Part shown: positions 3,394 through 52,079 of the stretch, piece by piece
How positions within the stretch are numbered: the stretch's first letter is position 1
Layout of the letters: each line of letters opens with the position of its first letter
Source of the DNA: a virus
Taxonomy: Duplodnaviria; Caudoviricetes
Reading direction: 5' to 3' (one strand)
Virus record (IMG/VR): IMGVR_UViG_3300027719_000005
Location: 1-62,461 of that record
DNA: 62,461 nucleotides
The notes under the pieces: generated by a model
Databases searched by the model: none
Seen by the model: the letters and a program-made list of their open reading frames with translations, nothing else
What the model was told of the DNA's origin: nothing
Position numbers and translations under genes: made by a program

Positions 3394-4137
3394 ATGAAAA
3401 CAGAAAACGTTCAATTTAATTTTTCAGCGGGTATGAATAAGGCCGAGGTAATTATCCGCGAGGTAAGCACCGTTAATGAACTTCCGGTTAAGGCTCCGAT
3501 AAAAACCAACATATTTGGAACAATTGGAGCTCCTTACGCTTTTCTCTCGAAGCGGAAAGATGTTAAAGAGCAAATTGATCAAAATAGGTGCCATATCCTT
3601 GTTGACCGTAATCAAATTAGTATTATACTAATTATCAATGAGGATGAAGAGTACCATAGGGGAACAGTAATCGGAAGTCTTGCGTTTAACCCAAAATTTG
3701 AGGAGTTCAGAATTAATAATGATAAGGTTTGGACTCCTACGCAGCTCGGCATGTTCTTTAAGATGAACAGGGCTTTCTTCCCAGAAAGGGATGTTAATAT
3801 GAAGCTGGTTTCTGACCTTATGAACTTCACAGCCAATGTTAACAACAACATTGAAAGATCGGCAAATGAAAAAGGTGATCGGGTGGATAAGTTTGAGCAA
3901 GTGGTTAACTCCAATCTACCGAAGTCTTTCAACCTTGTAATCCCAATATTCAAGGGTATGCCAGCAGAGAATATTGAGGTTGAGACTTTCGCTCAGGTTA
4001 ACGGCAGGGAAGTTTCATTTGCCCTTATTTCTCCAGGCGCAATGTCAACACAGGAGGAAATACGCAACAGGATTATTGATGAGCAACTTAAATTAATTGC
4101 TGAAATCTGTCCTGAGATAGCAATTATTGAGCAGTAG
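3394..4137 (+). CDS. Conserved hypothetical phage protein (possibly DUF2303/YfdQ-like)
   Basis: 247 aa, LPKSFNLVIPIFKG motif; family assignment tentative. Confidence 0.55.
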   Translation: MKTENVQFNFSAGMNKAEVIIREVSTVNELPVKAPIKTNIFGTIGAPYAFLSKRKDVKEQIDQNRCHILVDRNQISIILIINEDEEYHRGTVIGSLAFNPKFEEFRINNDKVWTPTQLGMFFKMNRAFFPERDVNMKLVSDLMNFTANVNNNIERSANEKGDRVDKFEQVVNSNLPKSFNLVIPIFKGMPAENIEVETFAQVNGREVSFALISPGAMSTQEEIRNRIIDEQLKLIAEICPEIAIIEQ

Positions 4138-4221
4138 TAACACTTGTGGTGTGTATTGCATAAACATCAGAACGTGGGAGGGGAAATGCAATACACACCT
4201 TTATGTTTAATATTAAGAACC

Positions 4222-4425
4222 ATGAAAATATTCGTAGAATCAAACGGCAATGTTCACTTTTCTGGAGACGAAGAGGGCAAATTAGAATTATTTACACAGA
4301 GAGATGTGATCATAAACACAATTGATGGATCGCTTGCCTTAAAGGAGGGTGGTGGAGTTTTTGACGATATAGAAGCCTATTCTATTAAGGTTGATGAGTA
4401 TCTGAAAAGTTTAAATGGTAATTAA
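4222..4425 (+). CDS. Hypothetical protein
   Basis: ORF 4144-4425; ATG at 4222 (MKIFVES) has the better A-rich context. Confidence 0.5.
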   Translation: MKIFVESNGNVHFSGDEEGKLELFTQRDVIINTIDGSLALKEGGGVFDDIEAYSIKVDEYLKSLNGN

Positions 4426-4436
4426 TAACTAAAATC

Positions 4437-4640
4437 ATGGCAGAAAGATTAAAATTATTTGTATGGGAAGATGCTTTATCAGATTATACTGATGGGATTA
4501 TGTTCGCATTTGCTCCAGATGTTGAAACTGCAAGAGAATTAATTATAGAGAAAGGAGTTGATTCAGAAGAGCCAGATTTATTATCAGAACCAAGAATTAT
4601 AGAACAGCAAGAAGGATTTGTAATATATGGAGGTGGTTAA
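4437..4640 (+). CDS. Hypothetical acidic protein
   Basis: 67-aa ORF with AAAATC-ATG start. Confidence 0.6.
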   Translation: MAERLKLFVWEDALSDYTDGIMFAFAPDVETARELIIEKGVDSEEPDLLSEPRIIEQQEGFVIYGGG

Positions 4641-4669
4641 TTACAAACTTTATTTCTTATTAAAATCAA

Positions 4670-4876
4670 ATGAAAATTGAAGATATAGAACTAGGCAGAG
4701 AGTATTTAAGAATACATACATATCCTGGTCAATCATCACAGCACTTTAAAGCGATAAAAAAAGAGAAAGATCGCGTCCTATTTATTCAAACATTCCCAAA
4801 GGAATTTCATAAAGGATTTGGACAAACCTATACACTGAATAGAATTGAATGTGAAAGATATATTCATCCACTTTAA
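4670..4876 (+). CDS. Hypothetical protein
   Basis: 68-aa ORF. Confidence 0.55.
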   Translation: MKIEDIELGREYLRIHTYPGQSSQHFKAIKKEKDRVLFIQTFPKEFHKGFGQTYTLNRIECERYIHPL

Positions 4877-4899
4877 TTAATTTTTTACGACAACATTAT

Positions 4900-5319
4900 A
4901 TGAATACAATTAATCGAATATACAGAGTGCCTTACATGAAAGATAAATTTTCGTATGTAGGACTTTTAAGGAACGAAAAACGATTTAACATAAACGACAA
5001 AGTATTTTTCTCAATAAATGGAAGTGAAATTGCTTTTGGTCGCATTGTCGGAGTCGAATTGCCTCCAGTTGACAATCCTGAATACCTGTACAAAATTGAA
5101 TTGCCAGAAGAACTTATAAAGCAAAGAATGGAACATAAAGAGTTTTATGAGGGTAAAGAAATTGATAAAGTAATATTGAATTGTGAATCAATTTTTTCAA
5201 CAGTTCAAGAGGCTAAAGAATCAGCTCTAGCAAACCTCGAAAGAATGGCAAGAATACAGCAAAGAGAAATTGAAAAATACTTTGGTCAATTTTCAGAGTT
5301 GTCTCAAGATAATCGCTAA
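4900..5319 (+). CDS. Hypothetical protein
   Basis: 139-aa ORF. Confidence 0.6.
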   Translation: MNTINRIYRVPYMKDKFSYVGLLRNEKRFNINDKVFFSINGSEIAFGRIVGVELPPVDNPEYLYKIELPEELIKQRMEHKEFYEGKEIDKVILNCESIFSTVQEAKESALANLERMARIQQREIEKYFGQFSELSQDNR

Positions 5320-5479
5320 TAATAAATTATAGACTCAGGAAGGGCTTTGCGGGAAGGAATAACAAACAGAAACCAATGAAAAAACAAATACTAATAGCAG
5401 GAAGTTGCTGTAAAATTTGCAAACATATGGGTTTGCGCAGGGATGCGTCAAGTGAAGTTTAATTTAAAATTTTGGATAT

Positions 5480-5632
5480 ATGAAAGCAGGAGATACTATT
5501 ATTTTAGATGACGTTGCAGTAGTTACGGTTGTTTGGTGCAATGAAACACTGATGCAAGTAGAGTATAAAGATTTAACTAGGAGATTGCTTACAATAGCAA
5601 TGTATGACATAAAAATTTTAAAGTCAACGTAA
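5480..5632 (+). CDS. 50-aa ORF not in the ORF track (MKAGDTIILDD...KILKST)
   Basis: Translated by hand; same flanks and same LKST* end as 6985-7173. Confidence 0.6.
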   Translation: MKAGDTIILDDVAVVTVVWCNETLMQVEYKDLTRRLLTIAMYDIKILKST

Positions 5633-5640
5633 CGCAATTT

Positions 5641-5778
5641 GCCTATAACGTTGGTGGTTGGCGTTCGTTGCCGACCTTAATTTAATAGATAAATTAACTT
5701 AAAAGCAGAAATATTATGAATACCGAAAAAGTATCAAAAAAGCAAAAAGGCAATGACGTTAACCACGTGTTACCTGCT
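5641..5778. repeat. attC-like hairpin H1
   Basis: GCCTATAAC 5641-5649; arm 5654-5672 pairs with 5749-5766; GTTACCTGCT 5769-5778. Confidence 0.8.
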
Positions 5779-6009
5779 GTTTTTGATTCTGTTGAACATG
5801 CCGTAAAAACGCTAAAATTAGACAGAAGGCATAAATGGGAGGAATGGAATGGTGAACTATCTTACCCTTACAAATATTCACACACTTGCACTGGTTGCGA
5901 TGGCGGTGGATGTAATGAGTGTGGGTATCACGGTAATTCAATAACTTATGTACCTGTACCAGCCTTTATGCCTGACGGCTCAATTGTCAAAGTGCGTTCT
6001 TTAAAATAG
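5716..6009 (+). CDS. Cassette ORF, Zn-finger-like (CxxCxGxGCxxC)
   Basis: Starts in the H1 loop; stop overlaps the next AGCAGGTAAC box. Confidence 0.7.
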   Translation: MNTEKVSKKQKGNDVNHVLPAVFDSVEHAVKTLKLDRRHKWEEWNGELSYPYKYSHTCTGCDGGGCNECGYHGNSITYVPVPAFMPDGSIVKVRSLK

Positions 6010-6132
6010 CAGGTAACGGTTGCGTATTGGCTTTGCTGCCAACGGGATTATAATTAATAACCAAACACTTTAAATTATGAAGAAAGCATCTAAAAAGAAT
6101 GAGGGCAATAAAGTTAATACGCTGTTACCTGC
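6008..6132. repeat. attC-like hairpin H2
   Basis: AGCAGGTAAC 6008-6017; arm 6022-6040 pairs with 6104-6122; GTTACCTGC 6124-6132. Confidence 0.82.
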
Positions 6133-6403
6133 TGATGCAGTTAAATTAAAGTTAACCCCTAAGCAGAATGCAGTAATTTTTTGCCTTCAAAATGGATGGG
6201 AATTAATTACTGACATGGAAATGTGCGGGGCAATAGTTGCCAATAACACAATGGAATACAGAATAAATAACGGATTATTCTTTAGATTAATAAACATGGA
6301 TTTGATATATCAGGGAGGTAGTGAAACTAGGCACTCTTTTACTTTAACGCCACTAGGCAAAAAATGTATAACGAAGCAAGTTTCATTCAACATAACAAAG
6401 TAG
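6077..6403 (+). CDS. Cassette ORF, possible winged-helix protein
   Basis: LTPKQ...LINMDLI...FTLTPLG pattern; starts in the H2 loop. Confidence 0.65.
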   Translation: MKKASKKNEGNKVNTLLPADAVKLKLTPKQNAVIFCLQNGWELITDMEMCGAIVANNTMEYRINNGLFFRLINMDLIYQGGSETRHSFTLTPLGKKCITKQVSFNITK

Positions 6404-6408
6404 CATTT

Positions 6409-6614
6409 GCAGGTAACGTAGAATGCAAGTGAAGTTTTTTAACCGACTTAAATACTAAAATTATGAACTTTAGAAAAGAATTAGCCAGAGAATTAAACCT
6501 CGGAGCAATTGCGGAAGAAACAATGCTCCAAGATTATATAATAGCCTGTGAAGCGATTGCGGTTAAATACCACAAAGAACAGGTTAAAAAATTGCATTTG
6601 CATAGTGTTAGCAA
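6409..6614. repeat. attC-like hairpin H3 (long coding loop)
   Basis: GCAGGTAAC 6409-6417; arm 6423-6444 pairs with 6582-6603; GTTAGCAA 6607-6614. Confidence 0.8.
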
Positions 6615-6744
6615 GTGCGTGGATGTCGAGCGAGGGCATTCGGTTTGCTGTACTAAGTGTGGTAAATCGTTAAAACCAATATATATGTGTACTGCCTGTG
6701 TAGATACGGAAATGCAAAATAAGTTAAAGCAAACTGATTGCTAA
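6463..6744 (+). CDS. Cassette ORF with C-terminal Zn ribbon
   Basis: CTKC...CTAC; starts in the H3 loop; TAA stop is part of TTGCTAAC. Confidence 0.65.
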   Translation: MNFRKELARELNLGAIAEETMLQDYIIACEAIAVKYHKEQVKKLHLHSVSKCVDVERGHSVCCTKCGKSLKPIYMCTACVDTEMQNKLKQTDC

Positions 6745-6844
6745 CGCTCGTGGTTGATGCCGTTTGTGCGGCGTACTTCCGCACAAAAGCAAGGCATCTA
6801 AACGCCAGCGAGAGCCGCACGAATGGCATTAACCTTTTGTTATT
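6738..6844. repeat. attC-like hairpin H4 (non-coding loop)
   Basis: TTGCTAAC 6738-6745; arm 6752-6772 pairs with 6814-6834; GTTATT 6839-6844. Confidence 0.8.
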
Positions 6845-6984
6845 GGTTGATTGAGTTACGAGTGAAGAGTAATAACATTGGCGTTTATCCACGAGCGTTA
6901 TAGGCAAATTAGCAGACCGAGAGCAAACGTACTTTGTTTGCGTAGGGATGCGTTAAGTGAAGTTTAATTTAAAACATTTATAGT

Positions 6985-7173
6985 ATGGAAATAACAGGCG
7001 CAATAATAATAGTGCAAATAGATAACGACAAGGCTTATCAAGTCGATATAAGTAGCGATAACGTTAAGGCACTTTTAGCTATGTATCAATATAGTAATGA
7101 CTGCTCTATTAAAATACTTGATAAGCCTTTAATCGGTTTGACTTTAACCAAAAATGTTTTAAAGTCAACGTAA
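6985..7173 (+). CDS. Cassette ORF, hypothetical
   Basis: 62 aa inside the segment GTTATAGGCAAATT (6897-6910)...AATTTGCCTATAAC (7177-7190). Confidence 0.65.
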   Translation: MEITGAIIIVQIDNDKAYQVDISSDNVKALLAMYQYSNDCSIKILDKPLIGLTLTKNVLKST

Positions 7174-7231
7174 TGCAATTTGCCTATAACTATGTTATTA
7201 AAATACTTATTTACTAAATAACTGACTAATA

Positions 7232-7462
7232 ATGAATGATATAATTAGTAAATGGGTGGTTAATTATAAGGATTGGCAGATTGCCATAACAGAGGACGAG
7301 AGAGTATTCTGTCTAAAAAGCAATATTGAATTAGTAGAGTACTGGAACAACGGCACAATTTCCTACAGACTCCCAAACACCTCTAAAAGAATAGGCGTTA
7401 AAACAATGAGGGAGAATTGTCAATTAAAGCAGGTAACTATTGAAAAGTATTGTCCATTTTAA
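7232..7462 (+). CDS. Hypothetical protein
   Basis: 76-aa ORF. Confidence 0.55.
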   Translation: MNDIISKWVVNYKDWQIAITEDERVFCLKSNIELVEYWNNGTISYRLPNTSKRIGVKTMRENCQLKQVTIEKYCPF

Positions 7463-7474
7463 TCAAATTAAACT

Positions 7475-7663
7475 ATGAAAACAAGAGTATTTGAAAGTTA
7501 TGGAATTTATATATCAATTGTTTTTGTAAGAAATTTAGACCGTGAACCAGCATGGAGGTTTGTCATCGAAAATGTTGAAGATGTTTTATTTGAAAGTGGA
7601 AAATATTCTGAATATCCCAAATGTGAATTAGAATCGTTAAAGAAAGCTGTTGAGTTTTTATAA
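7475..7663 (+). CDS. Hypothetical protein
   Basis: 62-aa ORF. Confidence 0.55.
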   Translation: MKTRVFESYGIYISIVFVRNLDREPAWRFVIENVEDVLFESGKYSEYPKCELESLKKAVEFL

Positions 7664-7690
7664 AACATTATAGAATAATAAACTAAAACT

Positions 7691-8107
7691 ATGAAAGCAT
7701 CAGAATTAAGAATTGGGAATAAATTTGAATGCATGGGAATGATTCAAACTGTCTTTGAAATTTGCGATAATACCGATAGAGGCAGAATAAAGCAAGCTGG
7801 ATATGAATATATTATTAGGTGTGAGGAAAACGGCAACCAGTATAAACCTATAGAAATTAAGCCAATACCCATAACAGCAGAATTGTTACTACGATTAGGT
7901 TTTAAAAATGATGATGGTGATTTCGTCTTGGAATATAATAGACAAGCGTTTATGATTTCAAAAGCCCAGGATGAAGATTTATTACTTCTTTATCGAGAAG
8001 ATATAGGGTTTTCCTTTAATGTGTTGAAATTTATTGAGCATATTCACGATTTACAAAATTTATACTATGCGCTGACAGGTGAAGAACTTACTTTAAGCGA
8101 CATATAA
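7691..8107 (+). CDS. Phage protein of the ELRIGN...LQNLYYALTGEEL type; paralogue of 62094-62444
   Basis: Shared N- and C-terminal motifs. Confidence 0.7.
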   Translation: MKASELRIGNKFECMGMIQTVFEICDNTDRGRIKQAGYEYIIRCEENGNQYKPIEIKPIPITAELLLRLGFKNDDGDFVLEYNRQAFMISKAQDEDLLLLYREDIGFSFNVLKFIEHIHDLQNLYYALTGEELTLSDI

Positions 8108-8124
8108 ACTAACCCAATACAACC

Positions 8125-8418
8125 ATGAACCAGTACATTAAAATTGCAATCTTAACATTACTCATTACAATATGTGTTAATGTGGCTATCTATGTACCCA
8201 GAATGATAATACTATCAAATTTGGAGTACAAGAGGACTTTTGTTCACTCTGTTTATGTAGGAAGTCTCAACGGTAAATCGAAGGAAATTAACCTTGGAGT
8301 TGTACTGGAAATATCGAAGTATAACGCATGGTTAGCCCGGATGAAATGGTTAAGGAGCCAAGGCTTGAGAGTCTGGATTCCGGTAGATATTGACAAGGAA
8401 ATATTCTATGAGCAGTAA
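8125..8418 (+). CDS. Hypothetical protein with N-terminal TM segment
   Basis: Hydrophobic residues ~5-25. Confidence 0.55.
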   Translation: MNQYIKIAILTLLITICVNVAIYVPRMIILSNLEYKRTFVHSVYVGSLNGKSKEINLGVVLEISKYNAWLARMKWLRSQGLRVWIPVDIDKEIFYEQ

Positions 8419-8439
8419 AATAATTAATACATTTGCCTA

Positions 8440-8715
8440 ATGAACTCCATCGAGCAAAAAATATACAACCATGCCAAGGGAATAATACCTCAAGCATTAA
8501 TTAGGGTAAAGCAGATTGAAACGAAGGCAAGGCTTATTAATATTCCATTCTCTTGTGATGGTTGCATTTATCGCTTAATATTTGACAAAGAGGTCAATGG
8601 GTTCACAAAAATAATTTATTCAAATGTTAAAGGGGGTCATATGACCTTGGAGCGAGTAAGTAGTGTTGGGTATTTTGATGATATTGAGGTGGGTGAAATA
8701 GAAATATGTAGATAG
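8440..8715 (+). CDS. Hypothetical protein
   Basis: 91-aa ORF before a terminator. Confidence 0.5.
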   Translation: MNSIEQKIYNHAKGIIPQALIRVKQIETKARLINIPFSCDGCIYRLIFDKEVNGFTKIIYSNVKGGHMTLERVSSVGYFDDIEVGEIEICR

Positions 8716-8743
8716 ATGGTAGCAGTTTAAATAAAGTTAGTTT

Positions 8744-8773
8744 AAAAAAGAGGAGCAATACCTCTTTTTTTTT
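8744..8773 (+). terminator. Rho-independent terminator
   Basis: AAAAAAGAGG-agcaata-CCTCTTTTTTTTT. Confidence 0.75.
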
Positions 8774-8885
8774 GTGGAATAATGCAAAAAGATATGTAAA
8801 CGACCGTGTTTTTTAGCATAGGCTTTGTTCTTAGGAATAAAATGTAAAAATCAATAAGTTTACCTATATCAATTCTTTTAGTATT

Positions 8886-9092
8886 ATGAATCCTAAATGT
8901 AACGAGTGTGCCTTTAATTGCCCTGAGGTTATTCAGAGCCTTTTAATTTTATCTAATATGGTTTGCGATGTCTGCAATTGCGAAGATGTAACAGAGGAGC
9001 GTAAAATAAGAGTAAAAACTGCCTACCAAATTTTAGAAAAATCAACCCTTGATAAGTGTATAAACAGAGAATGTATATGCATAATTATTTAA
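8886..9092 (+). CDS. Small Cys-rich hypothetical protein
   Basis: 68 aa with several CxxC motifs. Confidence 0.45.
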   Translation: MNPKCNECAFNCPEVIQSLLILSNMVCDVCNCEDVTEERKIRVKTAYQILEKSTLDKCINRECICIII

Positions 9093-9130
9093 CATGCTGA
9101 TATGTAGATAAATACAAATATGCAGTGTAA

Positions 9131-9166
9131 CAATAAAGGTCACTTATGAAACAGTGACCTTTATTG
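9131..9166. terminator. Probable bidirectional terminator between convergent genes
   Basis: 14-bp perfect stem CAATAAAGGTCACT / AGTGACCTTTATTG. Confidence 0.75.
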
Positions 9167-9208
9167 GCTATAAAAGAATATGGATACAGCAGTAATTATA
9201 GGCTGAAA

Positions 9209-11914
9209 TTACCCATTCCATGTAGTTGTTAAATCTGTATCTAGTCTATCCATCTGCATTAGCGTGGGTTTACATCCATGAACTAGCACTGTATATCTGC
9301 ATGATCGCTGTGTTTTGGTAATATGGACATCTACAACAGAGGATTGAATGAACGATTTACCATTGTTCAGGAAGATTAAACCCTCCTCGTTTAGCTGTCC
9401 ATACAGAAGAGTAGTTATCCTTCCATTGTTGCCTGTGATAACCTCTCTTAATACTGCCCTATTGACTTTTTTCTCGTCAGTATTGCCAAATCCACATGGT
9501 CGGCTAATAAGGAGTACTGGTAGGTTAATGCTTTCCTTGCCTAGTTCAACCAGATCAACGCTGTTGTTTCTGCTTATTAAAGCGTAGGTGTTCGGCCAGT
9601 TATTTGCCATCAGGTCGAATGACTCCGATCTCTTGTACCATAAACCAGAGTCGAATCCGAATATATAGGAGTACTGGTAGGTTGGATTGCTAACTATTAA
9701 CTCCTCGTTGATGTAGTCCACCGCAAGGGTGCTACCCTTTAGGTATGTTAAAAAGTCCACCTGGGATAAAGCATCATCATTCCCGAATAGATCAACCATG
9801 AGCGTGTTGAATAGATCGTTATTCACCAGATTATTGCTTACAGGACCGTTAACTGGATTGCTGATTAACTTAAAGGACTCTCCGTACAGGGAGATTATCC
9901 CTTTGTCGGTTGGGAATAGTATTCTCCCATTGTATGAAGTGGCTTTGCCTACCACTACCTCATCAGTTACAGGGATTACTCTTAGAACCATTACTTCGCC
10001 AGTTCCTATCTCCAGCGCAAATACTCCAGTAGTAGTAAATACTATCATGGGGTGCTGACCATATTGGAGCGCGGATAATGGCTTAGAGTTGGATATTAAT
10101 TGCAGGATTGAACCATTCCCCACCCTGTAGGAGTTCTTTGCCTCGAAGTATAGCGGATTATTAACAGCAGATACCTGTATTCGGTTATTGTCGGGAATGG
10201 AGTTAATAAATATATCTGAGGCTATTTCTAGCTCTGTGTACACTGTGGGGTATTTCCATGTCATTTGATTGAACAAATCCCAAGACATCCTCACGTAATC
10301 GGTATGCCTAGTTCTTTCCCCAGAAGTTCTTGTTGTAGAGGTAGGGATTGTTTCATCTATATCGGGCTGATAACCCATTAAAGAAAAGGAGTAGTTGAAA
10401 GAAGGGTGAGGTGTCATATCAGACGAAAAAGCAATGTATGTACTTCCTCCATCCGGCTTTACCAGAATATTAAACTTAACAGCCCTGCTATCTGGATAGT
10501 AAATACAGAAAGGAAGGTTTAAGTGAGTATCGCTATTAGCATAACCATCGCTTCGTAAGTGTATATTACCCACAGAGGTTTTCAGGATAAACTCAAACCA
10601 AACAGTCTTACTAACTCCTCCCGGATATGAAGCGGTATTGTATGATTTTGGTACCGGAGAAAAGTAGTTGATTATGCCTCCCATCCATAGTCGGGAATTA
10701 TAGATAAAAGACGATGATGCATACATTCTGATGTCTGATAACTGCTCTGTAGGCATAGAATCCTTGGTGTGAATGGCCGTAATATCCCCCAAACTTATTG
10801 TTGTGGGCGATACAATATCTAAATCATCTAAAGGAATTGTATGAACCTTGTAGAGCTGCGTGTCTTTAATCATTAGGTCGGGTGTAATGTTTTCATCATC
10901 CTCAATACTCTCGTTTAATTCCCAGGGAGAAACATTTCCACCGTTACTTCGTCCGTAATAATAATCATCTCTTTGGTTATTGTACGATTTGATTCTATGA
11001 TAAACCCTGCTCATATAAATATTTACACCCATTACCAACCCTTTATATTGAGAATTTAACTCCTCTAACACTCCTGAGTTAATACTTGGTATAGAGTACT
11101 GCAATGTGCCGGGATCAAGGGCTACAAATACTTTATCATTGCTACTAAATACGGCTACCTGTACTTCGCTAGAACTATCATACTTATCTGTGATTTGACC
11201 TCGAATGTGCATAATAATAGGCTTGGAGTGACCTACTATAGAGCCATCAAATAGCTCATAGGCGTACCGAATCACCACGTAACCGTTAATCATTCCCTCC
11301 TTCTCCCAGTTATTATAGGCAATATCAAGTACGGTCATTATCTGATCATACCTTTCATCCGATGAGCTATCGTAGTCTATTCTACCAACCGGAACGGCAG
11401 TTGATACTCCATTAGCCATGAGCCAAGAGGCATAATCTTTAAAGTTGTCATACCCTAGGTATGCACTATTAGGCTTGTTGTGAAAGTTAATTTCTAGCGG
11501 TTTGGGTACTGCATCCCCAACGTATCGGTAGTTGTTTATTTCAATATCGTAAAGGATATAGTGCATCTTCTTACTGCTATCGTCAAATACGATGAGAATA
11601 TTCCCTATCGTTTCGAACCTTACCTGCTTACTGGTGCCAAGGGTAAATATATCCACAAGAACACTCCCTTGCTTTTGCTTAATCTTTCCGGTAGGCTCAT
11701 GGTACACCACAATAAAAGAACCTGAGTTTGTATTGTGAACACACATAGCCTCAATTCCGCTTCCAATGGTGAACTGGTTGGTTTTGCCCTTCACGTTCTG
11801 CCACTTCCCATTCTTGTACCGCGCGTTAATCAACTCTTGGCACTCTATCATCTCGGCCTTATTGGTTAGGCTACTCCTGTTTATCCCCTTTAGGGTTGAC
11901 TCTACTGTTGCCAT
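9209..11914 (-). CDS. Tail tubular B / P22 gp10-like virion stabilisation protein
   Basis: 901 aa, beta-rich; IQVSAVNNPLYF...QYGQHPMIVFTTTGVFAL motif; next to the ejection genes. Confidence 0.7.
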   Translation of the reverse strand: MATVESTLKGINRSSLTNKAEMIECQELINARYKNGKWQNVKGKTNQFTIGSGIEAMCVHNTNSGSFIVVYHEPTGKIKQKQGSVLVDIFTLGTSKQVRFETIGNILIVFDDSSKKMHYILYDIEINNYRYVGDAVPKPLEINFHNKPNSAYLGYDNFKDYASWLMANGVSTAVPVGRIDYDSSSDERYDQIMTVLDIAYNNWEKEGMINGYVVIRYAYELFDGSIVGHSKPIIMHIRGQITDKYDSSSEVQVAVFSSNDKVFVALDPGTLQYSIPSINSGVLEELNSQYKGLVMGVNIYMSRVYHRIKSYNNQRDDYYYGRSNGGNVSPWELNESIEDDENITPDLMIKDTQLYKVHTIPLDDLDIVSPTTISLGDITAIHTKDSMPTEQLSDIRMYASSSFIYNSRLWMGGIINYFSPVPKSYNTASYPGGVSKTVWFEFILKTSVGNIHLRSDGYANSDTHLNLPFCIYYPDSRAVKFNILVKPDGGSTYIAFSSDMTPHPSFNYSFSLMGYQPDIDETIPTSTTRTSGERTRHTDYVRMSWDLFNQMTWKYPTVYTELEIASDIFINSIPDNNRIQVSAVNNPLYFEAKNSYRVGNGSILQLISNSKPLSALQYGQHPMIVFTTTGVFALEIGTGEVMVLRVIPVTDEVVVGKATSYNGRILFPTDKGIISLYGESFKLISNPVNGPVSNNLVNNDLFNTLMVDLFGNDDALSQVDFLTYLKGSTLAVDYINEELIVSNPTYQYSYIFGFDSGLWYKRSESFDLMANNWPNTYALISRNNSVDLVELGKESINLPVLLISRPCGFGNTDEKKVNRAVLREVITGNNGRITTLLYGQLNEEGLIFLNNGKSFIQSSVVDVHITKTQRSCRYTVLVHGCKPTLMQMDRLDTDLTTTWNG

Positions 11915-14456: not shown

Positions 14457-17400
14457 ATGTCCACTGAAAATACAATAGCCAAAATACTTGCTGAACGTAA
14501 TAGCAAAACTCCTGTTAATACAAATGTTGATGATATTGATAAGGGCTACGAGGAATGGAAAGCCCAAAACAATCCATCAAAAGCACCCGAAAAACAGGAG
14601 GATATTACCACCCTAAACAGTGAAATATCCTCACTGAGCAATAGAGTAAAGGAGTATGATGCTATTGATAGTGGCAAAAATAACAGTAGGGCTACAACTA
14701 CAGGGATGTATTCAGGGGGTATGAGCGTTCTGGATGCAGTAAAACCGCTAAAAGAAACCAACGATAAGTACACCGAACTAAGCAAAACTATCGTACAGGA
14801 TAGGGAGCGTTTGGCAGAGCTAAGCAAGAAAAGAGACGCTATAATTAGCGGCTCCGTTGATCCAATAATACAGCAGGTAAAATCGAAAAAAACGGAAATA
14901 TCCGATCAACTAGAAAGATCATACTCTGATTTAGAGAATACGCTTAATGAGGAGTATGACACAGCCGATCCGTTGAAAGCCTTGGAGTACGAGAAGAAAA
15001 GGCAGGAAACCACAAGGCTGATTGAAAGGAAGCAAGCCTTAACTCTATCTGAGGACTATCTTGTCAGAATGAAAGATTTGGCTAATGTTTCTCCAGATAA
15101 ATACATACAGGCACTAGGACAAGGATTTGCAAACCATGACTGGGTAGATATTGCCACTCTAGGGTTAAAGTCAATGGAGGATAACTTCAATCTTGCCAGT
15201 ATTTCAAAAAAAATTATGGCCGGAACCGCCACAGAGGAGGAGAAGGTTGCCTTAACTCTGTACAGCCAATTTAACCAGTTAGCCGCAACCAAGGATAAAC
15301 CTGTTACCTACGATATTGCACAGTCATTCATCCAATCTCTACCCTATATGGCTGATATTGCCATATCTGGAGGGGTTAGGGGAGCGATTACAAAGGGTAT
15401 TACAAAGGGAATTGGAAGAACGGTAGTTAACCTGTCCGATAATGTAGCAGGGATTGTTGCCAATAAAACGGCTCAAAAAGCGGTTAAAGGAACAATAAAG
15501 AATACTGCTAAAATAGCCACTCAGGCCACAGGGGCAATTGCTTCTTCTCCATTGCAGATGAATATGTACAATAACTTTTCCGAAAATAGACTAGCAAACT
15601 ATGTTATTGACTACGACAATGCCGGAGAAGTAATGGTGAGAGAGGCCAAGGATTCTGAAAATGTAGCAGAATCTATGATTAGAGCTATGGCATTAACAGC
15701 ATCCGCAACATTCTCCGAGAGTAGCGGTGTAATTTTCGATGATGCCTTTTCTGCCATTGGGAAAAAGTTCTCTCTGAATAAGCTTAACCCCCATTTTCAA
15801 AACAGCCTTAGTCGAGGTTTTGGTGCAGTAAAGAAAGCCACCAGTTTAAACCAAACATTCGGGGAGGTTGGTGAGGAGTACATTAATAAATTTACGGACA
15901 TTCTAGTTACAAACCCACGAGAAGAGGATGCCAATCAGGATGAGTGGGCCAATTTCTTCAACACAAGGGAAGGATTAACGATACTTGGATCAACCTTGAT
16001 TACTCAAGGAATGTTCAAGGCGCAATACGCTCCACACTTGGTTGACTTAGCAAAGACAAAATCCATCGTTAAGGAGAATGAAACCCTATTGCCGGAAGAA
16101 ATAAGGGCTAAGATAGTTCAGGCCATGAGTGCAAAAACGGCCAACGAGCAAGTTGATGGACTGGTGAACCTAAAATTAGGGAGCATTGAGAACCCTGAGG
16201 AGCGCAGAAGTGTTGTTAACTACATCAAGAGCAAAATTGAGTATGATTTTGTAAAAGGAGTAGCGCAGGGCGATCAGGAAATATACCGGATTAGAAAGGT
16301 AGATGATAGCGTGGCCTCCATTGCTCATAAAGAATCAGGCAAGGTTGTTATTGTTACCGAAACAAACCAGCAAGACCCCAACAACGAGGCTTATGTTATA
16401 GCAGGGAACATTGAAGGGGAGAAAACCGACCTTGTTACCATTATTACCAGCGAGGGTGAAAAGAAGATGGTATCCATAGCCAATCTTAGCATAACAAATA
16501 CGGTTGATGTAAAAGAGCTAAGGGATAACCTGGTAATTGCCGAACTCTCGAAGTTAGAACAGGAAACAGCCCAAGAGGAAGGGATTGAAAAAGCGGAATC
16601 TTTAGGGATCAATGCAGAGGAAGTACCCAGTATTGGGGAGGAGTTACCATTGCCCGATGGAAGTACCATTAAAATAGTATCCGTTGATACCAATGGGGTA
16701 TCATTTGATGTGCTTGACGCGGAGGGAATACCCGCCATGACCAAAAGCCTCAGCTTTGAGGAGTACTCTCAGATGGTTCAACCTACCGCAGAGAATCAAC
16801 CAGTCGAGGGTGGACAACCTGTAATATCCGAGCAGGACACTGAACAAGCACCTATTAGCGAAACCCCTAAAACCATCAAGACCTTAACCGACGGTAAGCA
16901 TAATTTAAGCGTTGCTTTGGATGAGAATAACGAGGGTATTTCTCAGGAGGTATATGATAACCTTCCCGATGCGGAGAAGGTGGTTAATTCCTTGTCGAAA
17001 CGATTCTCCAAGTTGGAGTTTAACATAGTGGACCAATCGGGCGATGATGTATTCTCCCCTGATGCCTATGTTATTTCCGTTAAACCAAGATCAGTTAAAA
17101 GTGTAATTAATCAGCAAGCCAATGAAACCATTGAAAGTGCTATCACCCCAGAAGAAAGCATCACTCCTGAGGCAGTCGTTGATCAAGTTAGCGAACAAGC
17201 AGAAGAAGGACAAATTAAAGAAGTAACCAATGAGCAAGACATACAAGGACAACAAGCATATCCCGAAATTGAGAACCAGGAACAAGTTAAGGGTGAAGAA
17301 ATACGACAGGAAGAAGGACAAAAACCTATCGGAGTAGATGAATTAAATAACACCCAAGCAGAAGAGTTAATCCCTGTTGATGATTCCTCCATAGGTAAAC

Positions 17401-20400
17401 TTAACGAGGAAGAAATAGCCCTTGTTCAGAGCAAACTTGATGATCCTGACGAACCACAGGATCAGAAGGAATACTGGGTAGAGGATATTGAAAAGTTAAA
17501 GACCAACCCTAAAAAGTACTGGAGTGAGTTTTTGGTACAGAAAGGAAATACTGCAAGGGAGGATCAAATTCTATCTATTCAGGACTATTACAACAACAAG
17601 CCTATTATTCAAGACCTAGACGCTCACGTTTCGGAGATTGACAAGAAAGCAGAGATTCAGTCCGAGGAGAAGAAAGTTAATATTGAACCTACTGAGGCGC
17701 AGAAAGAGGCAGGAAACTACAAGAAAGGCCATGTGACTATTGGTGGTTTTGATATTACCATTGAGAACCCTAAAGGATCGTTCCGAAAAGGAAAAGATCG
17801 TAGCGGGAAGGAGTGGAAAGTAAAGATGAACAACACCTACGGTTACTTTAAGCGAACCAAAGGGAAGGATGGGGAGCAAATAGATGTATTCCTTGGGGAA
17901 AATCCAGAGACAGGCAGAATATTCGTGGTGGATCAACTGGGAAAATCTGGAAAACTAACCTTATTTGATGAGCATAAGGTTATGATGGGCTTTAAATCCG
18001 AGAAGGAAGCCAAGGAAGCCTATAAATCTAACTACTCAAAGGACTGGGATGGGTTTGGAGCAATTACCGAAATGTCTAGGGAAGAATTTAAGGCGTGGAT
18101 TGGTGATGGTACCCGAACTAAAAACCCTGTAGAGTGGAAACAGAAACAGAAGAAGTCTAACCCTAACGCTTTTCTACCTAAACAGGCCATTGAATTGCTT
18201 AAATCTGATCCAAACAGTATTGATGAGGCCATTATTCAGCATATACTAAACGGAGGTAAGTTTAGCCGGAACGACTATATACGCCATTCAGGGTTTATGG
18301 ATGGCAGTAAGGAGCTTAACACCGCATCGTTTAACGGCCTGATAAACGGAAAAGATCAGGAGGAGGGGATGCAGTTTGATACATTCCTTGGTACACTAGG
18401 GAATGATTTTGGCATGAACGATGGCATTGATTTAACCAACGCTATTGTTGATGTGCTGAAACTTTCCACCAGAGCCAACCTAGCGAGACGATTAATTGAG
18501 GCATCGGGTACCAGTCAGGATAATCACCCACACCTAAACGATGATTACGCTCAAGGATTAGCGGAACAGGAGGAGGCATTGCGTTTAGCGGAGGATGAGT
18601 TAATGAACGAAGTAGCCGTACTTTTTTACTCAAATTATCCTCAAATAACTAACCAAGAATATGCAGAATTATTTAACTTTGGAGAAAATGAATACAATGA
18701 GCAACGAAATGAACCAACAGCCGAAGGAGACATTCGAACAGTTCAAGGAGAGACTGGAGAAGATGGTGGAGTCGATAATGCAGGAGACAGGCAAGACGAA
18801 ACTGGAAGTGTACCGGGAATTGAAGTGGATGGGCGAACAGAAGGCGAAGGAAGTGCAGAAGTAAACCCCCAAAACCAAGTTCCCGAAGTCGGGAATATGG
18901 TAGAATCACAAGAAGTTGATCGTGTTCCTGATACAAAGGAAACGATAGAAACTACAAAAAAAACATTTTTATTCATGTCCGATAGCCCTATGCACCAAGC
19001 AAGGGCTTTAGGTGTGTTAACTAGAAACACAAAGGTAGATGGCGTAGTAATGCCAATTTACCAATGGATTGAAGGATTACCAAGCGGATTAGGGGTAGGA
19101 AAACAAAAGATTTATACCAAAAACGCTAAATCTGACGATGGATCAGTAGAAAAATTAGTCTTAGGAAATTATATTGTAGGTTCAAAAGCAGAACAAGATT
19201 ACTATAACTATATTCAAACTGGGGGTGTTTCTTACACTCAATTCCTTGCAGACAAGAAAGTGCAGGATGAAATCATTGCAGAGAAAAAAAGAATTGAGAA
19301 AGAGGCGCAGGATAAGATATTTGAAGATAAGCGCAGAAATGATAATGAGGCATACAAAAAAGCTAAGGAAGATCAAATAAAAGAACTTATCGAGAAAGGA
19401 AAACAGCCAACAATTGATAAGTTTACCGAATCATTTAAGAATAAAATAAAACAACTTCAATCTAAGCCTCAAACAAGTGCGGTAAAAGAAGAAATAGCCT
19501 ACAATAACAGAATGATAGAGCAAACTATCAGTCAGGTTGAAAGCAGTTACGATATTGCAACAACCATGTATGAAGTTATTGAAGGAGAAGTTAAGCCAAA
19601 ATATACTTTCAGTATAGGGGATAAGGTATTGTTCCCTGCAACAATTGACCACAAACAAACTCTTATTGAAACTGTCATTGAGTCAAGCAGATCGGATAAT
19701 AACGATAAGATTATTTTTAAGGTAGCGAAAAAAGAAGGCATAGTAAATCCATACAGTTCATACGATGGATTGAGACCTGTTATAGATAACGACCAGTCGA
19801 GTCCAGAAAATAAAAACCCTGAGAACGTTTCTAATGTCGATGCAATCAAATCTGTAATATCCTTACAGGACGAGCAGGAAACTACCATTAGTAGGCTTAA
19901 ATCTATTGCGGCTCAACCACAGAAAACCGCCAAGGATAATCAGGACAAGACACAACTAGAATACAAATTAGGACAGATTGAGGAAAAACTTAACAAGGCT
20001 CAAGCCTTAGTTAATATTCCTGCCGAAAAATTACCCGCAGTTACTAAGTTAGTACGACAAGCATTGGCCGAAGAGAAAGCCATTGATGCTAGGATTGAGT
20101 CGTTAAACTCCCAGAAAAAGAACAAGGAGAAGGAATTTAATACCCGCAATGGTGTATTTGGGGATAATAAGGAGATTGCCGACAAAGCAAAAGGGCAACA
20201 ATCCCTATTTGCTGGAGATATATTTGAGGCCAGCACTAACACTTTAGCCAATACCATTAAGCCTATTAACGACAGTATAGCCAAACTGGAGGAGGAGAAA
20301 CAGCGCAATGCTAAAATCCTTACCGATAAGGTTGAACTGGAGTTACAGGGAGCGCAACAGGAGATTAAGGAGGAGGTTAAAGCGGAACCAAAAGGAGACC

Positions 20401-50891: not shown

Positions 50892-52079
50892 TTAATCATC
50901 AAGTAAATGGTTGATATTATTACTCATTTCCTCCGTGTCGAAATCTCCATGATACCTTTTATGTACCGCTTCCGATGAGTGGCCCACTAACTGCATCCTC
51001 ATTTCAATAGGAATACCTTTCTTTTTGAGAATATCCACAAAAGAGTGCCTTGCTGTGTGAAACGTAATCAGTTTATCTATTTTTGCTTTCAGCGCGATTG
51101 ATTTTAAAGATTTATTCACCACTGCATTAATAGAGGATACCCCATTTTCGTACTTTAGGAGATCATCATAATGATGTTTAAGTAGAGGAAATAGGTAGTA
51201 ACTATCATTGTTTTTATACTTATTGACAATATCTAAGCACTTATCATCCATAACCAGAGTCATTCTTTTAGTAAAGTTACTTTTGCTGGTCATGTAGGAC
51301 AGAGTATTACCTTTTATATTCTCATTTTTGAGCAAGGCTACATCTCTGAAACGCATACCCCAACAGTAAAAAGCGAAAAGAAACATATCTTTTGAAAGAG
51401 ATAGGACCGGGGCAGATAGCACCAGGTTATCTATACTTTTTATTTCTTCCAACGTTAAACGATCCTTCAAAACTTCCTCCCCTTGCGTTTCAACCTCGTT
51501 GAATGGTTTTTTATCAACATGACCATTTTTAACAGCCTCATGGTACGCTCTCCTCAATACTTTAAAGTTTGACTGGACAGTATTGGCATTATTAGTCTTT
51601 TGAAGGTGTAATTTGTAATCGACTAGAAGCTCTGGAGTAATTTCATCAACAGGTAAGGGATTATTAACGTATGTTTTGAATTTTTTCAGCACAGTAAGCC
51701 AAAGTCTATACGTTCCCTGTTTGCCACACTTCAAGTAAAAATCTCTTTTATTTTCTGCAATAGCAAAGAAATCAGGCTTAGATTCTTCCTCTGTACTTTT
51801 AAGGATTAACTCATCAACAGTAATACTCTTATTGCTGATCATGGCCTCATAAATCTTGTCCTGTATTTGGCTGACAATCTTATTGGCCGTTCTATTTGAT
51901 TTAAGAAAATCTGGATGATTTTGCTTTAGCAAGCCTGTTTTTTTATCAAACTGACTTTCAGTGGCACTATCTATGATTAGATACTTCTCTCTACCCTGGG
52001 AGGAAACTCTCACCACATAGGGGTACTTATTATCTTTGAGAGGCTTATTTTTCTTGAGCATTAAAGTAACTGTTGCCAT
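50892..52079 (-). CDS. int: Phage tyrosine integrase (arm-binding, SAM-like and catalytic domains)
   Basis: GMRFRD, K, HTARHSF, GHS...Y catalytic residues. Confidence 0.95.
   Translation of the reverse strand: MATVTLMLKKNKPLKDNKYPYVVRVSSQGREKYLIIDSATESQFDKKTGLLKQNHPDFLKSNRTANKIVSQIQDKIYEAMISNKSITVDELILKSTEEESKPDFFAIAENKRDFYLKCGKQGTYRLWLTVLKKFKTYVNNPLPVDEITPELLVDYKLHLQKTNNANTVQSNFKVLRRAYHEAVKNGHVDKKPFNEVETQGEEVLKDRLTLEEIKSIDNLVLSAPVLSLSKDMFLFAFYCWGMRFRDVALLKNENIKGNTLSYMTSKSNFTKRMTLVMDDKCLDIVNKYKNNDSYYLFPLLKHHYDDLLKYENGVSSINAVVNKSLKSIALKAKIDKLITFHTARHSFVDILKKKGIPIEMRMQLVGHSSEAVHKRYHGDFDTEEMSNNINHLLDD

Follow-up and report, generated by a model that had tools for sequence, protein, structure and literature searches.

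The early region of the temperate phage genome IMGVR_UViG_3300027719_000005, analyzed here over its whole 62,461-nt stretch (the window), contains four long imperfect inverted repeats (H1 to H4) that differ in sequence but share one architecture, which raises the question of whether the small genes between them are mobile cassettes. The original prediction was that H1 to H4 are attC-like hairpins, that the bases outside their boxes pair with the opposite end of the intervening segment as in integron cassettes, and that the recombinase would be a host enzyme acting in trans or a non-IntI enzyme. The sequence observations were confirmed, and the cassette interpretation is supported, although by relatives and not by gain or loss of units within this array. 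The features of the locus are listed in Table 1.

Table 1 Features of the hairpin array and its surroundings, with the observations that define each
Feature	Coordinates	Strand	Description	Supporting observations
Upstream unit	5431-5649	+	Holds ORF50 (5480-5632); ends in the flank plus box AATTTGCCTA-TAAC (5636-5649), the left boundary of cassette 1	5' flank (5431-5469) and 3' end (5608-5649) are 95% and 90% identical to 6936-6974 and 7149-7190, while the ORFs between them differ
H1	5646-5772	+	attC-like hairpin: TAAC-G, 3-nt bulge, arm of about 18 bp, loop holding the start of ORF97, partner arm, T-GTTA	Duplex -29.3 kcal/mol
Cassette 1	5650-6017	+	H1 plus ORF97 (5716-6009), ending in AGCAGG-TAAC	GTTACCTGCT (5769) pairs with AGCAGGTAAC (6008), GTT plus 7
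H2	6014-6127	+	attC-like hairpin; start codon of ORF108 (6077) in its loop	
Cassette 2	6018-6417	+	H2 plus ORF108 (6077-6403)	GTTACCTGC (6124) pairs with GCAGGTAAC (6409), GTT plus 6; an ORF108 homologue sits in an equivalent cassette of an unrelated phage
H3	6414-6610	+	Hairpin with a long loop (about 137 nt) holding the first 45 or so codons of ORF93	Duplex -24.5 kcal/mol
Cassette 3	6418-6745	+	H3 plus ORF93 (6463-6744); the stop codon is the TAA of the next TAAC box	GTTAGCAA (6607) pairs with TTGCTAAC (6738), GTT plus 5
H4 region	6742-6900	+	Inner hairpin 6742-6842 (21-bp arm 6752-6772 with 6814-6834); alternative outer closure 6742-6753 with 6889-6900	Outer closure is a perfect 12-bp pair
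Cassette 4	6746-7190	+	H4 plus ORF62 (6985-7173), ending in AATTTGCCTA-TAAC	GTTATAGGCAAATT (6897) pairs with AATTTGCCTATAAC (7177), GTT plus 11
Terminal site	7177-7231	+	YAAC box (7177-7190) with no hairpin after it, followed by an A+T-rich stretch resembling the attI-like sites next to recombinase genes in relatives; ORF76 follows instead of a recombinase	Alignment with 13 recombinase-proximal sites, resembling those of loci L024 and L025; the likeness is modest
Second box without a hairpin	7428-7437	+	AGCAGGTAAC followed by TA, inside ORF76; significance unresolved	Exact partner of the GTTACCTGCT flanks of H1 and H2 (GTT plus 7 with 6124)

Folding and flank complementarity of the hairpins

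To determine if the inverted repeats form stable structures, each was folded and compared with shuffled sequences. As + strand RNA, all four fold into the long hairpins: H1 (folded over 5636-5783) gives -32.6 kcal/mol (z -2.58, with 3 of 200 shuffles as good), H2 gives -43.8 (z -5.98, 0 of 200), H3 gives -54.0 (z -4.01, 0 of 200), and H4 gives -46.3 (z -3.75, 0 of 200). With DNA energy parameters H2 (z -3.62) and H4 (z -2.22) still fold, but the minimum-energy fold of H1 is not the long hairpin (z -0.81). On the - strand H1, H2 and H4 are weaker, while H3 is slightly stronger (-56.2, z -6.22). A genome-wide local-fold scan was too coarse to be of use beyond showing that 6720-6972 is the most stable 250-nt stretch on the + strand. 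Each site has TAAC-G on the left and T-GTTA on the right, with an unpaired stretch of 3-5 nt on the left and 0-3 nt on the right and arms of about 18-21 bp.

The flank after the GTTR box of each hairpin pairs with the flank before the next YAAC box. All five outer complementarities of the original prediction are present, but the one proposed between GTTATT (6839) and AATAAC (6871) is weak (GTT plus 2 to 3). Because the left arm of H4 also pairs perfectly with a segment further downstream, the right boundary of H4 is ambiguous, and the alternative in which H4 is closed by the outer 12-bp pair and linked directly to 7177-7190 fits the chain rule better. The density of these repeats is far more than chance: ten of the 35 perfect Watson-Crick inverted repeats of at least 10 bp (span up to 320) in the 62,461-nt genome lie in 5463-7190, which is 2.8% of the genome, and each extra flank base pair has a chance of about 1 in 4. 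The noted absence of an integron integrase was also confirmed, as the only PF00589 match is a 395-aa arm-type integrase at 50892-52079 (-), 44 kb away. ORF76 was rejected as a remnant of an array-linked recombinase (hhalign probability 0.1%), and a Pfam search with the ten small proteins of the window gave nothing above cut-off.

The search for close relatives of this phage gave little. A blastn search of 4400-9200 against 50,697 phage records found no match. ORF139 had no relatives in viral contigs and one 1165-nt metagenome contig without an array, while ORF138 and ORF247 had 3 and 6 relatives at 53-64% identity, whose fetched regions hold no chained hairpins. Two very long (640-676 kb) viral contigs with ORF108 homologues also lack sites. 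Thus, no close relative was found that would show gain or loss in this very array and, without read data, no circles or junctions are shown for it.

Related arrays and their linkage to a Xer-like recombinase

The same chained architecture, with unrelated sequence, was found in a second phage genome (G001), which shares only 3 weak protein matches with the window at blastp E 1e-4 and has 11 or more hairpins in one locus (L013). There, the fourth box base co-varies across the gene body (GTTG with CAAC) and not within a hairpin. Both arrays of G001 end in the same sequence, which at one of them runs straight into the start codon of a tyrosine recombinase. Of 26 viral loci with a relative of that recombinase, 18 have at least 1.5 kb upstream; in 14 of those 18 an array ends 44-119 nt before the gene, and 16 of 18 hold at least 2 chained hairpins. 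The site after the last YAAC is conserved and attI-like. In 80 bacterial loci, a scan restricted to the region upstream of the recombinase found almost nothing and says nothing about absence, as a subsequent model search showed arrays mostly downstream on the other strand, with sites in 41 of the 80 loci.

The recombinase is a 263-aa Xer-like protein in which the catalytic residues R, K, HxxR, H and Y are invariant among 15 recombinases compared. The closest solved structure is the archaeal XerA (4a8e, E 4e-53), with which it aligns end to end. In contrast, IntI4 (2a3v) aligns in two pieces, with 74 residues where the query has 26, so that the enzyme lacks about 48 residues that IntI4 has between the two conserved halves. 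It also scores below the integron-integrase cut-off of NCBIfam (TIGR02249; 150 against 265 bits).

Across 122 chained hairpins from 18 arrays, selected on the AAC and GTT triplets, G follows AAC in 87% and T precedes GTT in 87%. The base before AAC is T in 81% and C in 11%, and the base after GTT is A in 75% and G in 15%. The left bulge is 3-5 nt in 100 of 122 and the right offset is 0-1 nt in 98 of 122, flank pairing is 5-7 bp in 120 of the 122, the + strand is the more stable in 93 of 122, and the pair next to the box is G.T in 98 of 122. In an alignment of 41 hairpins, 15 of 16 consensus pairs carry compensatory changes. A covariance model (R1) trained only on these other arrays, without the window, finds H1 (73.6 bits, E 1e-14), H2 (57.8 bits, E 5e-11) and H4 (32.0 bits over 6733-6851). 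Although R1 misses H3, even with filters off, there is no other hit below E 0.1 in the 62 kb, the next one scoring 13 bits at E 0.76. R1, run on 4 of the 9 loci with ORF138 or ORF247 relatives and on the two very long contigs, gave no hit, and it found nothing at E 0.01 or below in the first 2500 nt of Freya_6 or in Cellulophaga phage Ingeline.

Gain and loss of units in Polaribacter phage Freya

Near-identical isolates of Polaribacter phage Freya differ by whole units. Freya_10 equals Freya_9 plus 307 bp, with a junction that is ambiguous only within AAC, and in the six of ten isolates compared (Freya_1, 5, 6, 8, 9 and 10) all junctions lie at the end of a YAAC box. Previous analysis of these phages described the Freya gene as an integrase pointing to a temperate lifestyle and does not mention cassettes, hairpins, insertions or a variable region (Bartlau et al. 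2021, PMC8776804). Freya sites at record positions 902 and 48920 are followed by sequences resembling the attI-like right arm; R1 scores a 5'-cut hairpin after 48920 (33.8 bits) but nothing after 902, and some exchanges may therefore be ordinary double-strand Xer-type events.

A model for the array and its alternatives

Taken with a probability of roughly 0.8, the best explanation is that 5650-7190 is an array of four gene cassettes of an integron-like site-specific recombination system found in Bacteroidota-type phages and bacteria. Each cassette starts just after a YAAC box and opens with an imperfect hairpin (YAAC-G, a 2-4 nt bulge, an arm of about 21 bp, a variable loop, the partner arm, T-GTTR), then carries one small gene that usually starts inside the hairpin loop, and ends with the next YAAC. 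Strand exchange is inferred to take place in or at the AAC of the left box, which is why the bases after each GTTR pair with the bases before the next YAAC; in the excised circle those two flanks would close one helix of about 11 bp at the base of the hairpin. In relatives the enzyme is inferred to be the Xer-like recombinase, with new units entering at the attI-like site between the last YAAC and that gene. That the + (coding) strand folds as single-stranded DNA for recombination is likewise inferred. The window has the array and a terminal attI-like site but no such recombinase, making its array an orphan (CALIN-like) that, if still mobile, could move only with an enzyme supplied in trans by a co-infecting phage or by a host that carries the system.

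It is unlikely that the hairpins are only RNA structures, such as translation-initiation displays, processing sites or stabilizers of a polycistronic early transcript. All sites are on the coding strand, start codons lie in the loops in 73 of 122 hairpins, G.U pairs make the + strand RNA fold the best one, and H1 does not fold with DNA parameters. However, units are gained and lost at the DNA level exactly at the boxes in Freya, arrays end at a conserved site next to a recombinase gene, and flank pairing spans bodies of up to 1.1 kb holding three ORFs (L013 5224/6364), which an RNA function does not explain. Hairpins with short loops and no start codon also exist (L013 4297-4387 and 4752-4817). 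No hairpin is scored as an intrinsic terminator, with 4 terminator-like sites against 2.8 expected, none spanning H1-H4, and loops of 40-140 nt, and an Rfam search over 4000-9500 gave only one chance-level hit. An added RNA role is not excluded. Also unlikely, but the strongest of the alternatives, is that the Xer-like recombinase moves units through ordinary double-stranded core sites (a left arm ending in YAAC, a central region and a right arm), with the hairpin symmetry as a by-product. Consistent with this, the attI-like site in Freya is nearly dyad-symmetric around a central region of about 7 nt, the sites at 902 and 48920 are followed by sequences resembling the attI-like right arm with no hairpin scored after 902, and the enzymes lack the IntI insertion that the integron literature holds to be needed for hairpin recombination (Escudero et al. 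2020, PMC7790495). Yet the arms co-vary strongly while their sequences are otherwise unrelated, the right box T-GTTR is conserved, which a left-box-only double-strand site would not need, and G.T wobbles are conserved at fixed places and show a strand bias.

Homologous or microhomology-driven recombination between repeated regulatory stem-loops, without a dedicated enzyme, appears very unlikely. While ORF50 and ORF62 share flanks of 39 and 42 nt, H1 and H2 share a 52-nt stretch at 75% identity, and the Freya junction flanks are alike over about 9 of 11 nt, most hairpins share only the 3-5 nt boxes, the junctions are precise at AAC in every Freya variant compared, and a catalytically intact recombinase gene abuts the arrays in 14 of 18 loci. 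Only a remote possibility remains that the repeats are sites of a shufflon-type inversion switch flipping gene bodies behind a fixed leader. Gene bodies are bracketed by perfect inverted repeats of 8-14 bp and short leader peptides are shared (ORF97 and ORF108), but all hairpin sites have the same polarity with the bulge always on the left, the Freya variants compared differ by presence or absence of units with no inverted segment in their alignments, and the reverse strands of the bodies carry no matching in-frame ORFs.

Relation to known systems

The closest published work concerns phage CALINs (Qi et al. 2023, PMC9892861), which reported a CALIN in Polaribacter phage P12002L and IntI1-mediated recombination of one attC; this phage has chained hairpins and 4 R1 hits around its methyltransferase genes. 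As in integron attC sites and CALINs (PMC4889954; Neron et al. 2022, PMC9024848), the sites are imperfect hairpins with conserved AAC and GTT boxes, variable loops, otherwise unrelated sequence and one polarity, the flank after GTT belongs to the neighboring cassette, arrays can stand without an integrase, and phage cargo includes methyltransferases. Here, however, the inferred exchange is at the left (AAC) box of the coding strand, so the hairpin leads its gene instead of trailing it, genes commonly start inside the loop and read through the right arm, and the better-folding strand is the coding strand. The unpaired bases form one bulge next to the box on the same arm. As with IntI and attI, a tyrosine recombinase of the Xer/IntI branch sits next to the array in relatives, with a dedicated non-hairpin site between the gene and the first cassette and new units next to that site. 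In phages the gene is co-directional with the cassettes and downstream of them, whereas in most bacterial loci it is convergent with them.

The PeSL modules of T4-type phages also bracket small early genes with stem-loops in a hyperplastic region, and modular shuffling through circles has been proposed for them, but PeSLs are homologous repeats that recombine by homology, while the hairpin arms here are unrelated in sequence apart from the H1 and H2 stretch, and a site-specific recombinase is linked to the arrays. As is inferred here, CTX involves Xer-type enzymes acting on a hairpin that mimics a double-stranded core site, but uses host XerCD and one site to integrate a whole phage genome, without arrays of gene cassettes.

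No description of hairpin cassette arrays linked to a Xer-like recombinase in Bacteroidota or their phages was found in a partial survey of the literature. The linkage points toward a second route by which phages and bacteria swap accessory genes. It is about as likely as not that Bacteroidota and their phages carry a second integron-type system, in which a short Xer-like recombinase, without the IntI extra domain thought to have enabled hairpin recombination, captures and reorders genes through folded coding-strand hairpins and an attI-like site. Phages would use it to stockpile anti-defense cargo such as orphan DNA methyltransferases and, because bacteria hold long chromosomal arrays of the same sites, cassettes could pass between host and phage, the window being a phage that carries such cassettes without the enzyme. 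If the enzyme does catalyze the reaction, the origin of integron recombination, attributed to one extra helix in the integrase, can be tested on a simpler protein, integron finders that require IntI would miss these loci as complete integrons, and phages gain a documented way to trade small early genes and methyltransferases that counter host defenses.

Cassettes outside the window often encode DNA methyltransferases. Comparison of cassettes between arrays by tblastx and tblastn showed homologous units at different ranks in some arrays, and of the window's cassettes only ORF108 recurs. For annotation, the cassette organization explains why small phage genes in these regions carry odd N-terminal leaders and sit in dense inverted repeats.

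Chained hairpins in the early region of a temperate phage

The window is one complete virus record of 62,461 bp with direct terminal repeats, and it encodes a P22-like portal, an SU10-type capsid protein, an S24-peptidase repressor-like protein, and a 395-aa tyrosine integrase with Arm-DNA-bind_5 and SAM_5 domains. It is a temperate tailed phage. A single open reading frame of 5,574 codons, more than a quarter of the genome, lies between a 420-aa ORF and the portal gene. The hairpins lie in a run of small + strand genes, none of which matches a Pfam family above cut-off. Every feature listed in the original prediction, which described four attC-like hairpins (H1-H4) with complementarity between cassette ends, is in the sequence. 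When folded as + strand RNA, the four regions form the long hairpins, with z scores of -2.58 (H1), -5.98 (H2), -4.01 (H3), and -3.75 (H4). With DNA parameters, H2 and H4 still fold (z -3.62 and -2.22), but the best fold of H1 is not the long hairpin (z -0.81). On the - strand, H1, H2, and H4 are weaker, while H3 is slightly stronger. Ten of the 35 perfect inverted repeats of at least 10 bp (span up to 320) in the genome lie in 5463-7190, which is 2.8% of the genome. The flank after each GTTA pairs with the flank before the next TAAC, with one further link (6839/6871) extending only 2-3 bp beyond the box.

Two features were not noted in the original prediction. The start codons of ORF97, ORF108, and ORF93 lie in the loops of H1, H2, and H3, so that the right arms encode N-terminal leaders. 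In addition, the left arm of H4 also pairs perfectly with a more distal stretch, which would make one large hairpin linked directly to the terminal box. Other repeats were seen nearby. ORF50 and ORF62 are unrelated in sequence apart from their last residues, yet they sit in near-identical shells, as if a cassette frame had been reused for different genes. An exact copy of the AGCAGGTAAC flank plus box of H2 lies inside ORF76, followed by TA as at the terminal site, with no hairpin after it. No explanation was found for perfect inverted repeats inside ORF62, ORF108, and ORF139. A perfect hairpin right after the stop of ORF247 does not fit the family consensus and is not scored by the covariance model described below; it may be a degenerate site or an unrelated stem-loop.

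Coordinates of features in the window and in other phages
Feature	Source	Position	Strand	Detail
Perfect hairpin after the stop of ORF247	window	4137-4207	+	14 bp, flanked by GTAAC and GTTT
Inverted repeat inside ORF139	window	4998-5010 with 5272-5284		13 bp, perfect
Shared upstream stretch, ORF50 and ORF62	window	5431-5469 and 6936-6974		39 nt, 95% identical
Shared end, ORF50 and ORF62	window	5608-5649 and 7149-7190		42 nt, includes the flank plus TAAC box, 90% identical
Start codon of ORF97	window	5716		in the loop of H1
Flank pairing	window	5769/6008		GTT plus 7
Start codon of ORF108	window	6077		in the loop of H2
Flank pairing	window	6124/6409		GTT plus 6
Inverted repeat inside ORF108	window	6176-6186 with 6355-6365		11 bp, perfect
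Start codon of ORF93	window	6463		in the loop of H3
Flank pairing	window	6607/6738		GTT plus 5
Alternative pairing of the left arm of H4	window	6742-6753 with 6889-6900		would make one hairpin, 6742-6900
Further flank link	window	6839/6871		2-3 bp beyond the box
Flank pairing	window	6897/7177		GTT plus 11
Inverted repeat inside ORF62	window	7030-7043 with 7116-7129		14 bp, perfect, flanked by ATAAC-G and G-GTTT
Terminal box	window	7177-7190		
Box inside ORF76	window	7428-7437	+	no hairpin after it
ORF138	window	7691-8107		a few hundred bases past the terminal boxes
ORF of 5,574 codons	window	14457-31181	+	
Tyrosine integrase, 395 aa	window	50892-52079	-	
End of the second array	G001 (L016-L019)	about 42170-42255 (reverse-complement coordinates)		duplicate of the attI-like site plus the first 45 nt or so of the recombinase gene
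Homologue of ORF138 (PHROG 10066)	L028	5908-6249		directly after the last site of the array
Inserted unit	Freya_10	3794-4100		307 bp
Hairpin of the inserted unit	Freya_10	3791-3978		
Methyltransferase genes	P12002L	30078-30848 and 31326-32126		

The same architecture in an unrelated phage

ORF108 has 20 homologues in the protein collection. Of the 21 sequences, the window's included, only five carry the N-terminal leader of 22-30 residues that the loop and right arm of the hairpin encode, and 16 start at the conserved domain with its KLTPKQN motif. Two leaderless homologues lie in very long viral contigs of 640-676 kb that have no hairpin sites. One homologue (44% identity) lies in locus L013, part of a complete 68,201-bp phage genome designated G001, in which at least eleven hairpins of the same build follow one another. 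Each has YAAC-G on the left and T-GTTR on the right, a left bulge of 3-5 nt, and a right offset of 0-1 nt, and the flank after each GTTR pairs with the flank before the next YAAC over 5-7 bp, once across a 1.1-kb body with three ORFs. Where a box reads GTTG the next left box reads CAAC, so the fourth base travels with the gene body and not with its own hairpin. The two phages share only three protein matches at blastp E 1e-4, and the architecture is therefore not inherited with the phage backbone.

A Xer-like recombinase and an attI-like site next to related arrays

G001 has two arrays, both of which end in a YAAC box with no hairpin, followed by the same stretch of about 100 nt. At one array this stretch runs into the start codon of a 263-aa tyrosine recombinase. 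At the other, about 22 kb from the intact gene, only the first 45 nt or so of that gene are duplicated, which suggests a past duplication or recombination between arrays. The protein has SAM_4 and Phage_integrase domains and scores 169 bits on NCBIfam's XerA model (cut-off 220) and 150 bits on the integron-integrase model (cut-off 265). Its closest solved relative is archaeal XerA (4a8e), while IntI4 aligns in two pieces, with 74 residues where the query has 26, so the IntI-specific insertion is absent.

Relatives at 28-100% identity are encoded in 26 viral loci, 18 of which have at least 1.5 kb upstream. In 14 of these 18 an array ends 44-119 nt before the gene, and 16 hold at least two chained hairpins. 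Loci L028, L037, and L040 have arrays that do not abut the gene, and L045 has none; L020 is G001 itself, and L033 and L034 are near-duplicates. In L028, a homologue of ORF138 follows directly after the last site of the array. The sequence after the last YAAC is conserved within subgroups, and the catalytic R, K, HxxR, H, and Y are invariant in 15 aligned recombinases.

Sites are conserved by structure rather than by sequence

A total of 122 chained hairpins, four of them from the window, were collected from 18 arrays. T stands 8 nt before AAC in 89%, the base before AAC is T in 81%, G follows AAC in 87%, T precedes GTT in 87%, and A or G follows GTT in 90%. The left bulge offset is 3-5 nt in 100 hairpins and the right offset is 0-1 nt in 98, with a median span of 123 nt and 21 pairs. 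The + strand fold is the more stable in 93 hairpins, by 3.9 kcal/mol on average. The pair next to the box is G.T in 98, and the first non-Watson-Crick pair at the end of the flank helix is G.T or T.G in 81; on the other strand those wobbles would be A.C mismatches. An ORF of at least 35 codons starts inside the hairpin in 73 of the 122. In an alignment of 41 hairpins of similar length from other phages, 15 of 16 consensus pairs show compensatory changes and one T-A pair is invariant.

To determine if the window's sites belong to this family, a covariance model (R1) was built from those 41 hairpins, none of which comes from the window. R1 finds H1 (73.6 bits, E 1e-14), H2 (57.8 bits), and H4 (32.0 bits) on the + strand, and the next hit in the 62 kb scores 13 bits at E 0.76. 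H3, with its long loop, is missed even with filters off. In a batch of 15 sources, the model gave no hit in four of the nine loci from relatives of ORF138 and ORF247, in the two very long contigs, in Cellulophaga phage Ingeline, or in the first 2500 nt of Freya_6, but it did hit Freya_10 and P12002L.

Natural isolates differ by whole units

Relatives of the recombinase at 39% identity, annotated as integrase, occur in the cultured Polaribacter phages Freya_1 to Freya_10, whose genome lengths range from 43,978 to 48,920 bp. Six of these (Freya_1, 5, 6, 8, 9, and 10) were compared. Outside one region they are 99.4-100% identical, and they differ in what lies just upstream of the integrase. Freya_10 equals Freya_9 plus a single insert made of one hairpin, one ORF, and a new YAAC, with a junction that is ambiguous only within AAC. 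Freya_1, Freya_5, Freya_6, and Freya_9 each join a different YAAC directly to the same attI-like stretch before the integrase, and Freya_8 equals Freya_10 minus record 1-902, with AAC at both ends. R1 scores the hairpin after the site at 48078 at 70 bits and the one after 48920 at 33.8 bits, the latter as a hit cut at its 5' end, while nothing was scored after 902. No close relative of the window's phage was found. This test, which had been put forward with the original prediction, comes out in favor of the cassette reading in a relative rather than in the window.

Relation to reported phage CALINs

Previous analysis of phage genomes with IntegronFinder (Qi et al. 2023, PMC9892861) reported integrons or CALINs in 21 phages, among them Polaribacter phage P12002L, whose CALIN holds two methyltransferase genes and in which IntI1 recombined one of two tested attC sites. 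No recombinase of the present family was found for P12002L among the matches that included the Freya relatives. It does have chained hairpins of the present type, as well as four R1 hits on the strand of its early genes, around the methyltransferase genes, that may or may not coincide with the published sites. The Freya and Ingeline genes have been taken as integrases that suggest a temperate lifestyle, with no mention of cassettes or hairpins (Bartlau et al. 2021, PMC8776804). Integron integrases are stated to have moved to single-strand recombination by gaining the I2 helix (Escudero et al. 2020, PMC7790495). In the literature searched, no description of hairpin arrays linked to a Xer-like recombinase was found.

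Inferred mechanism and alternatives

From the site anatomy, the chained flank pairing, the physical link to a catalytically intact Xer-like recombinase through a conserved non-hairpin site, and the presence or absence of whole units with junctions in AAC, it is inferred that a unit is everything from just after one YAAC to the next YAAC. An excised unit would be a circle in which the two flanks close a helix of about 11 bp below the hairpin, and integration would occur between that site and the attI-like site, which places the newest unit next to the recombinase gene. Wobble pairs, strand bias, and covariation further point toward the folded coding strand as the substrate. The helix bounded by two conserved G.T pairs, the bulge, and the long arm would then mimic the two arms and central region of a double-stranded Xer site, much as attC appears to do for IntI. 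For the window, while nothing shows that the array still moves, the four flank pairings are perfect, which argues that it was assembled recently.

Of the alternatives considered, double-strand Xer-type exchange without folding is unlikely, as the co-varying arms and the conserved right box argue against it. A role in RNA only is less likely still, since it cannot explain the DNA junctions, the recombinase linkage, or flank pairing across a kilobase, although an added RNA role, such as displaying the start codon in an open loop, remains possible. Homology-driven shuffling of the PeSL kind is considered very unlikely, and an inversion switch remote.

Cargo and chromosomal arrays

Of the ten longest ORFs inside the other arrays, seven carry DNA methyltransferase domains, one carries a phosphoesterase domain, and two carry nothing. 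The window's four cassette proteins are small and none has a known family, but two of them (ORF97 and ORF93) have paired CxxC motifs.

A scan of one genome per species returned 80 loci with relatives of the recombinase at 38-66% identity, mostly from Bacteroidota, with some from Ignavibacteria, Nitrospirae, and others. R1 gives 101 hits at E below 1e-3 in 41 of the 80 loci, and 86 of these hits lie on the strand opposite to the recombinase gene and downstream of it. Flavobacterium terrisoli alone has nine within 6 kb. Seven of these loci were examined for chained flank pairing, and the hairpins are chained in all seven; in five, the last YAAC without a hairpin lies 104-159 nt past the end of the recombinase match. 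Chromosomal arrays therefore exist, usually convergent with the gene, whereas in phages the array is upstream and co-directional. A host carrying the system could supply the enzyme to an orphan phage array. Long arrays convergent with a Xer-like recombinase gene were seen in Flavobacterium, Epilithonimonas, Ignavibacteria, and other genomes (bacterial contigs L082, L063, L117, L100, L075, L072, and L113), and in L063 several consecutive units share the same flank, as expected for tandem duplicates. Relatives of the recombinase at 40-44% identity, each with one R1 hit nearby, also occur on three short contigs titled as archaeal MAGs (L062, L097, and L128), binned as Methanoperedens, Micrarchaeota, and Altarchaeum.
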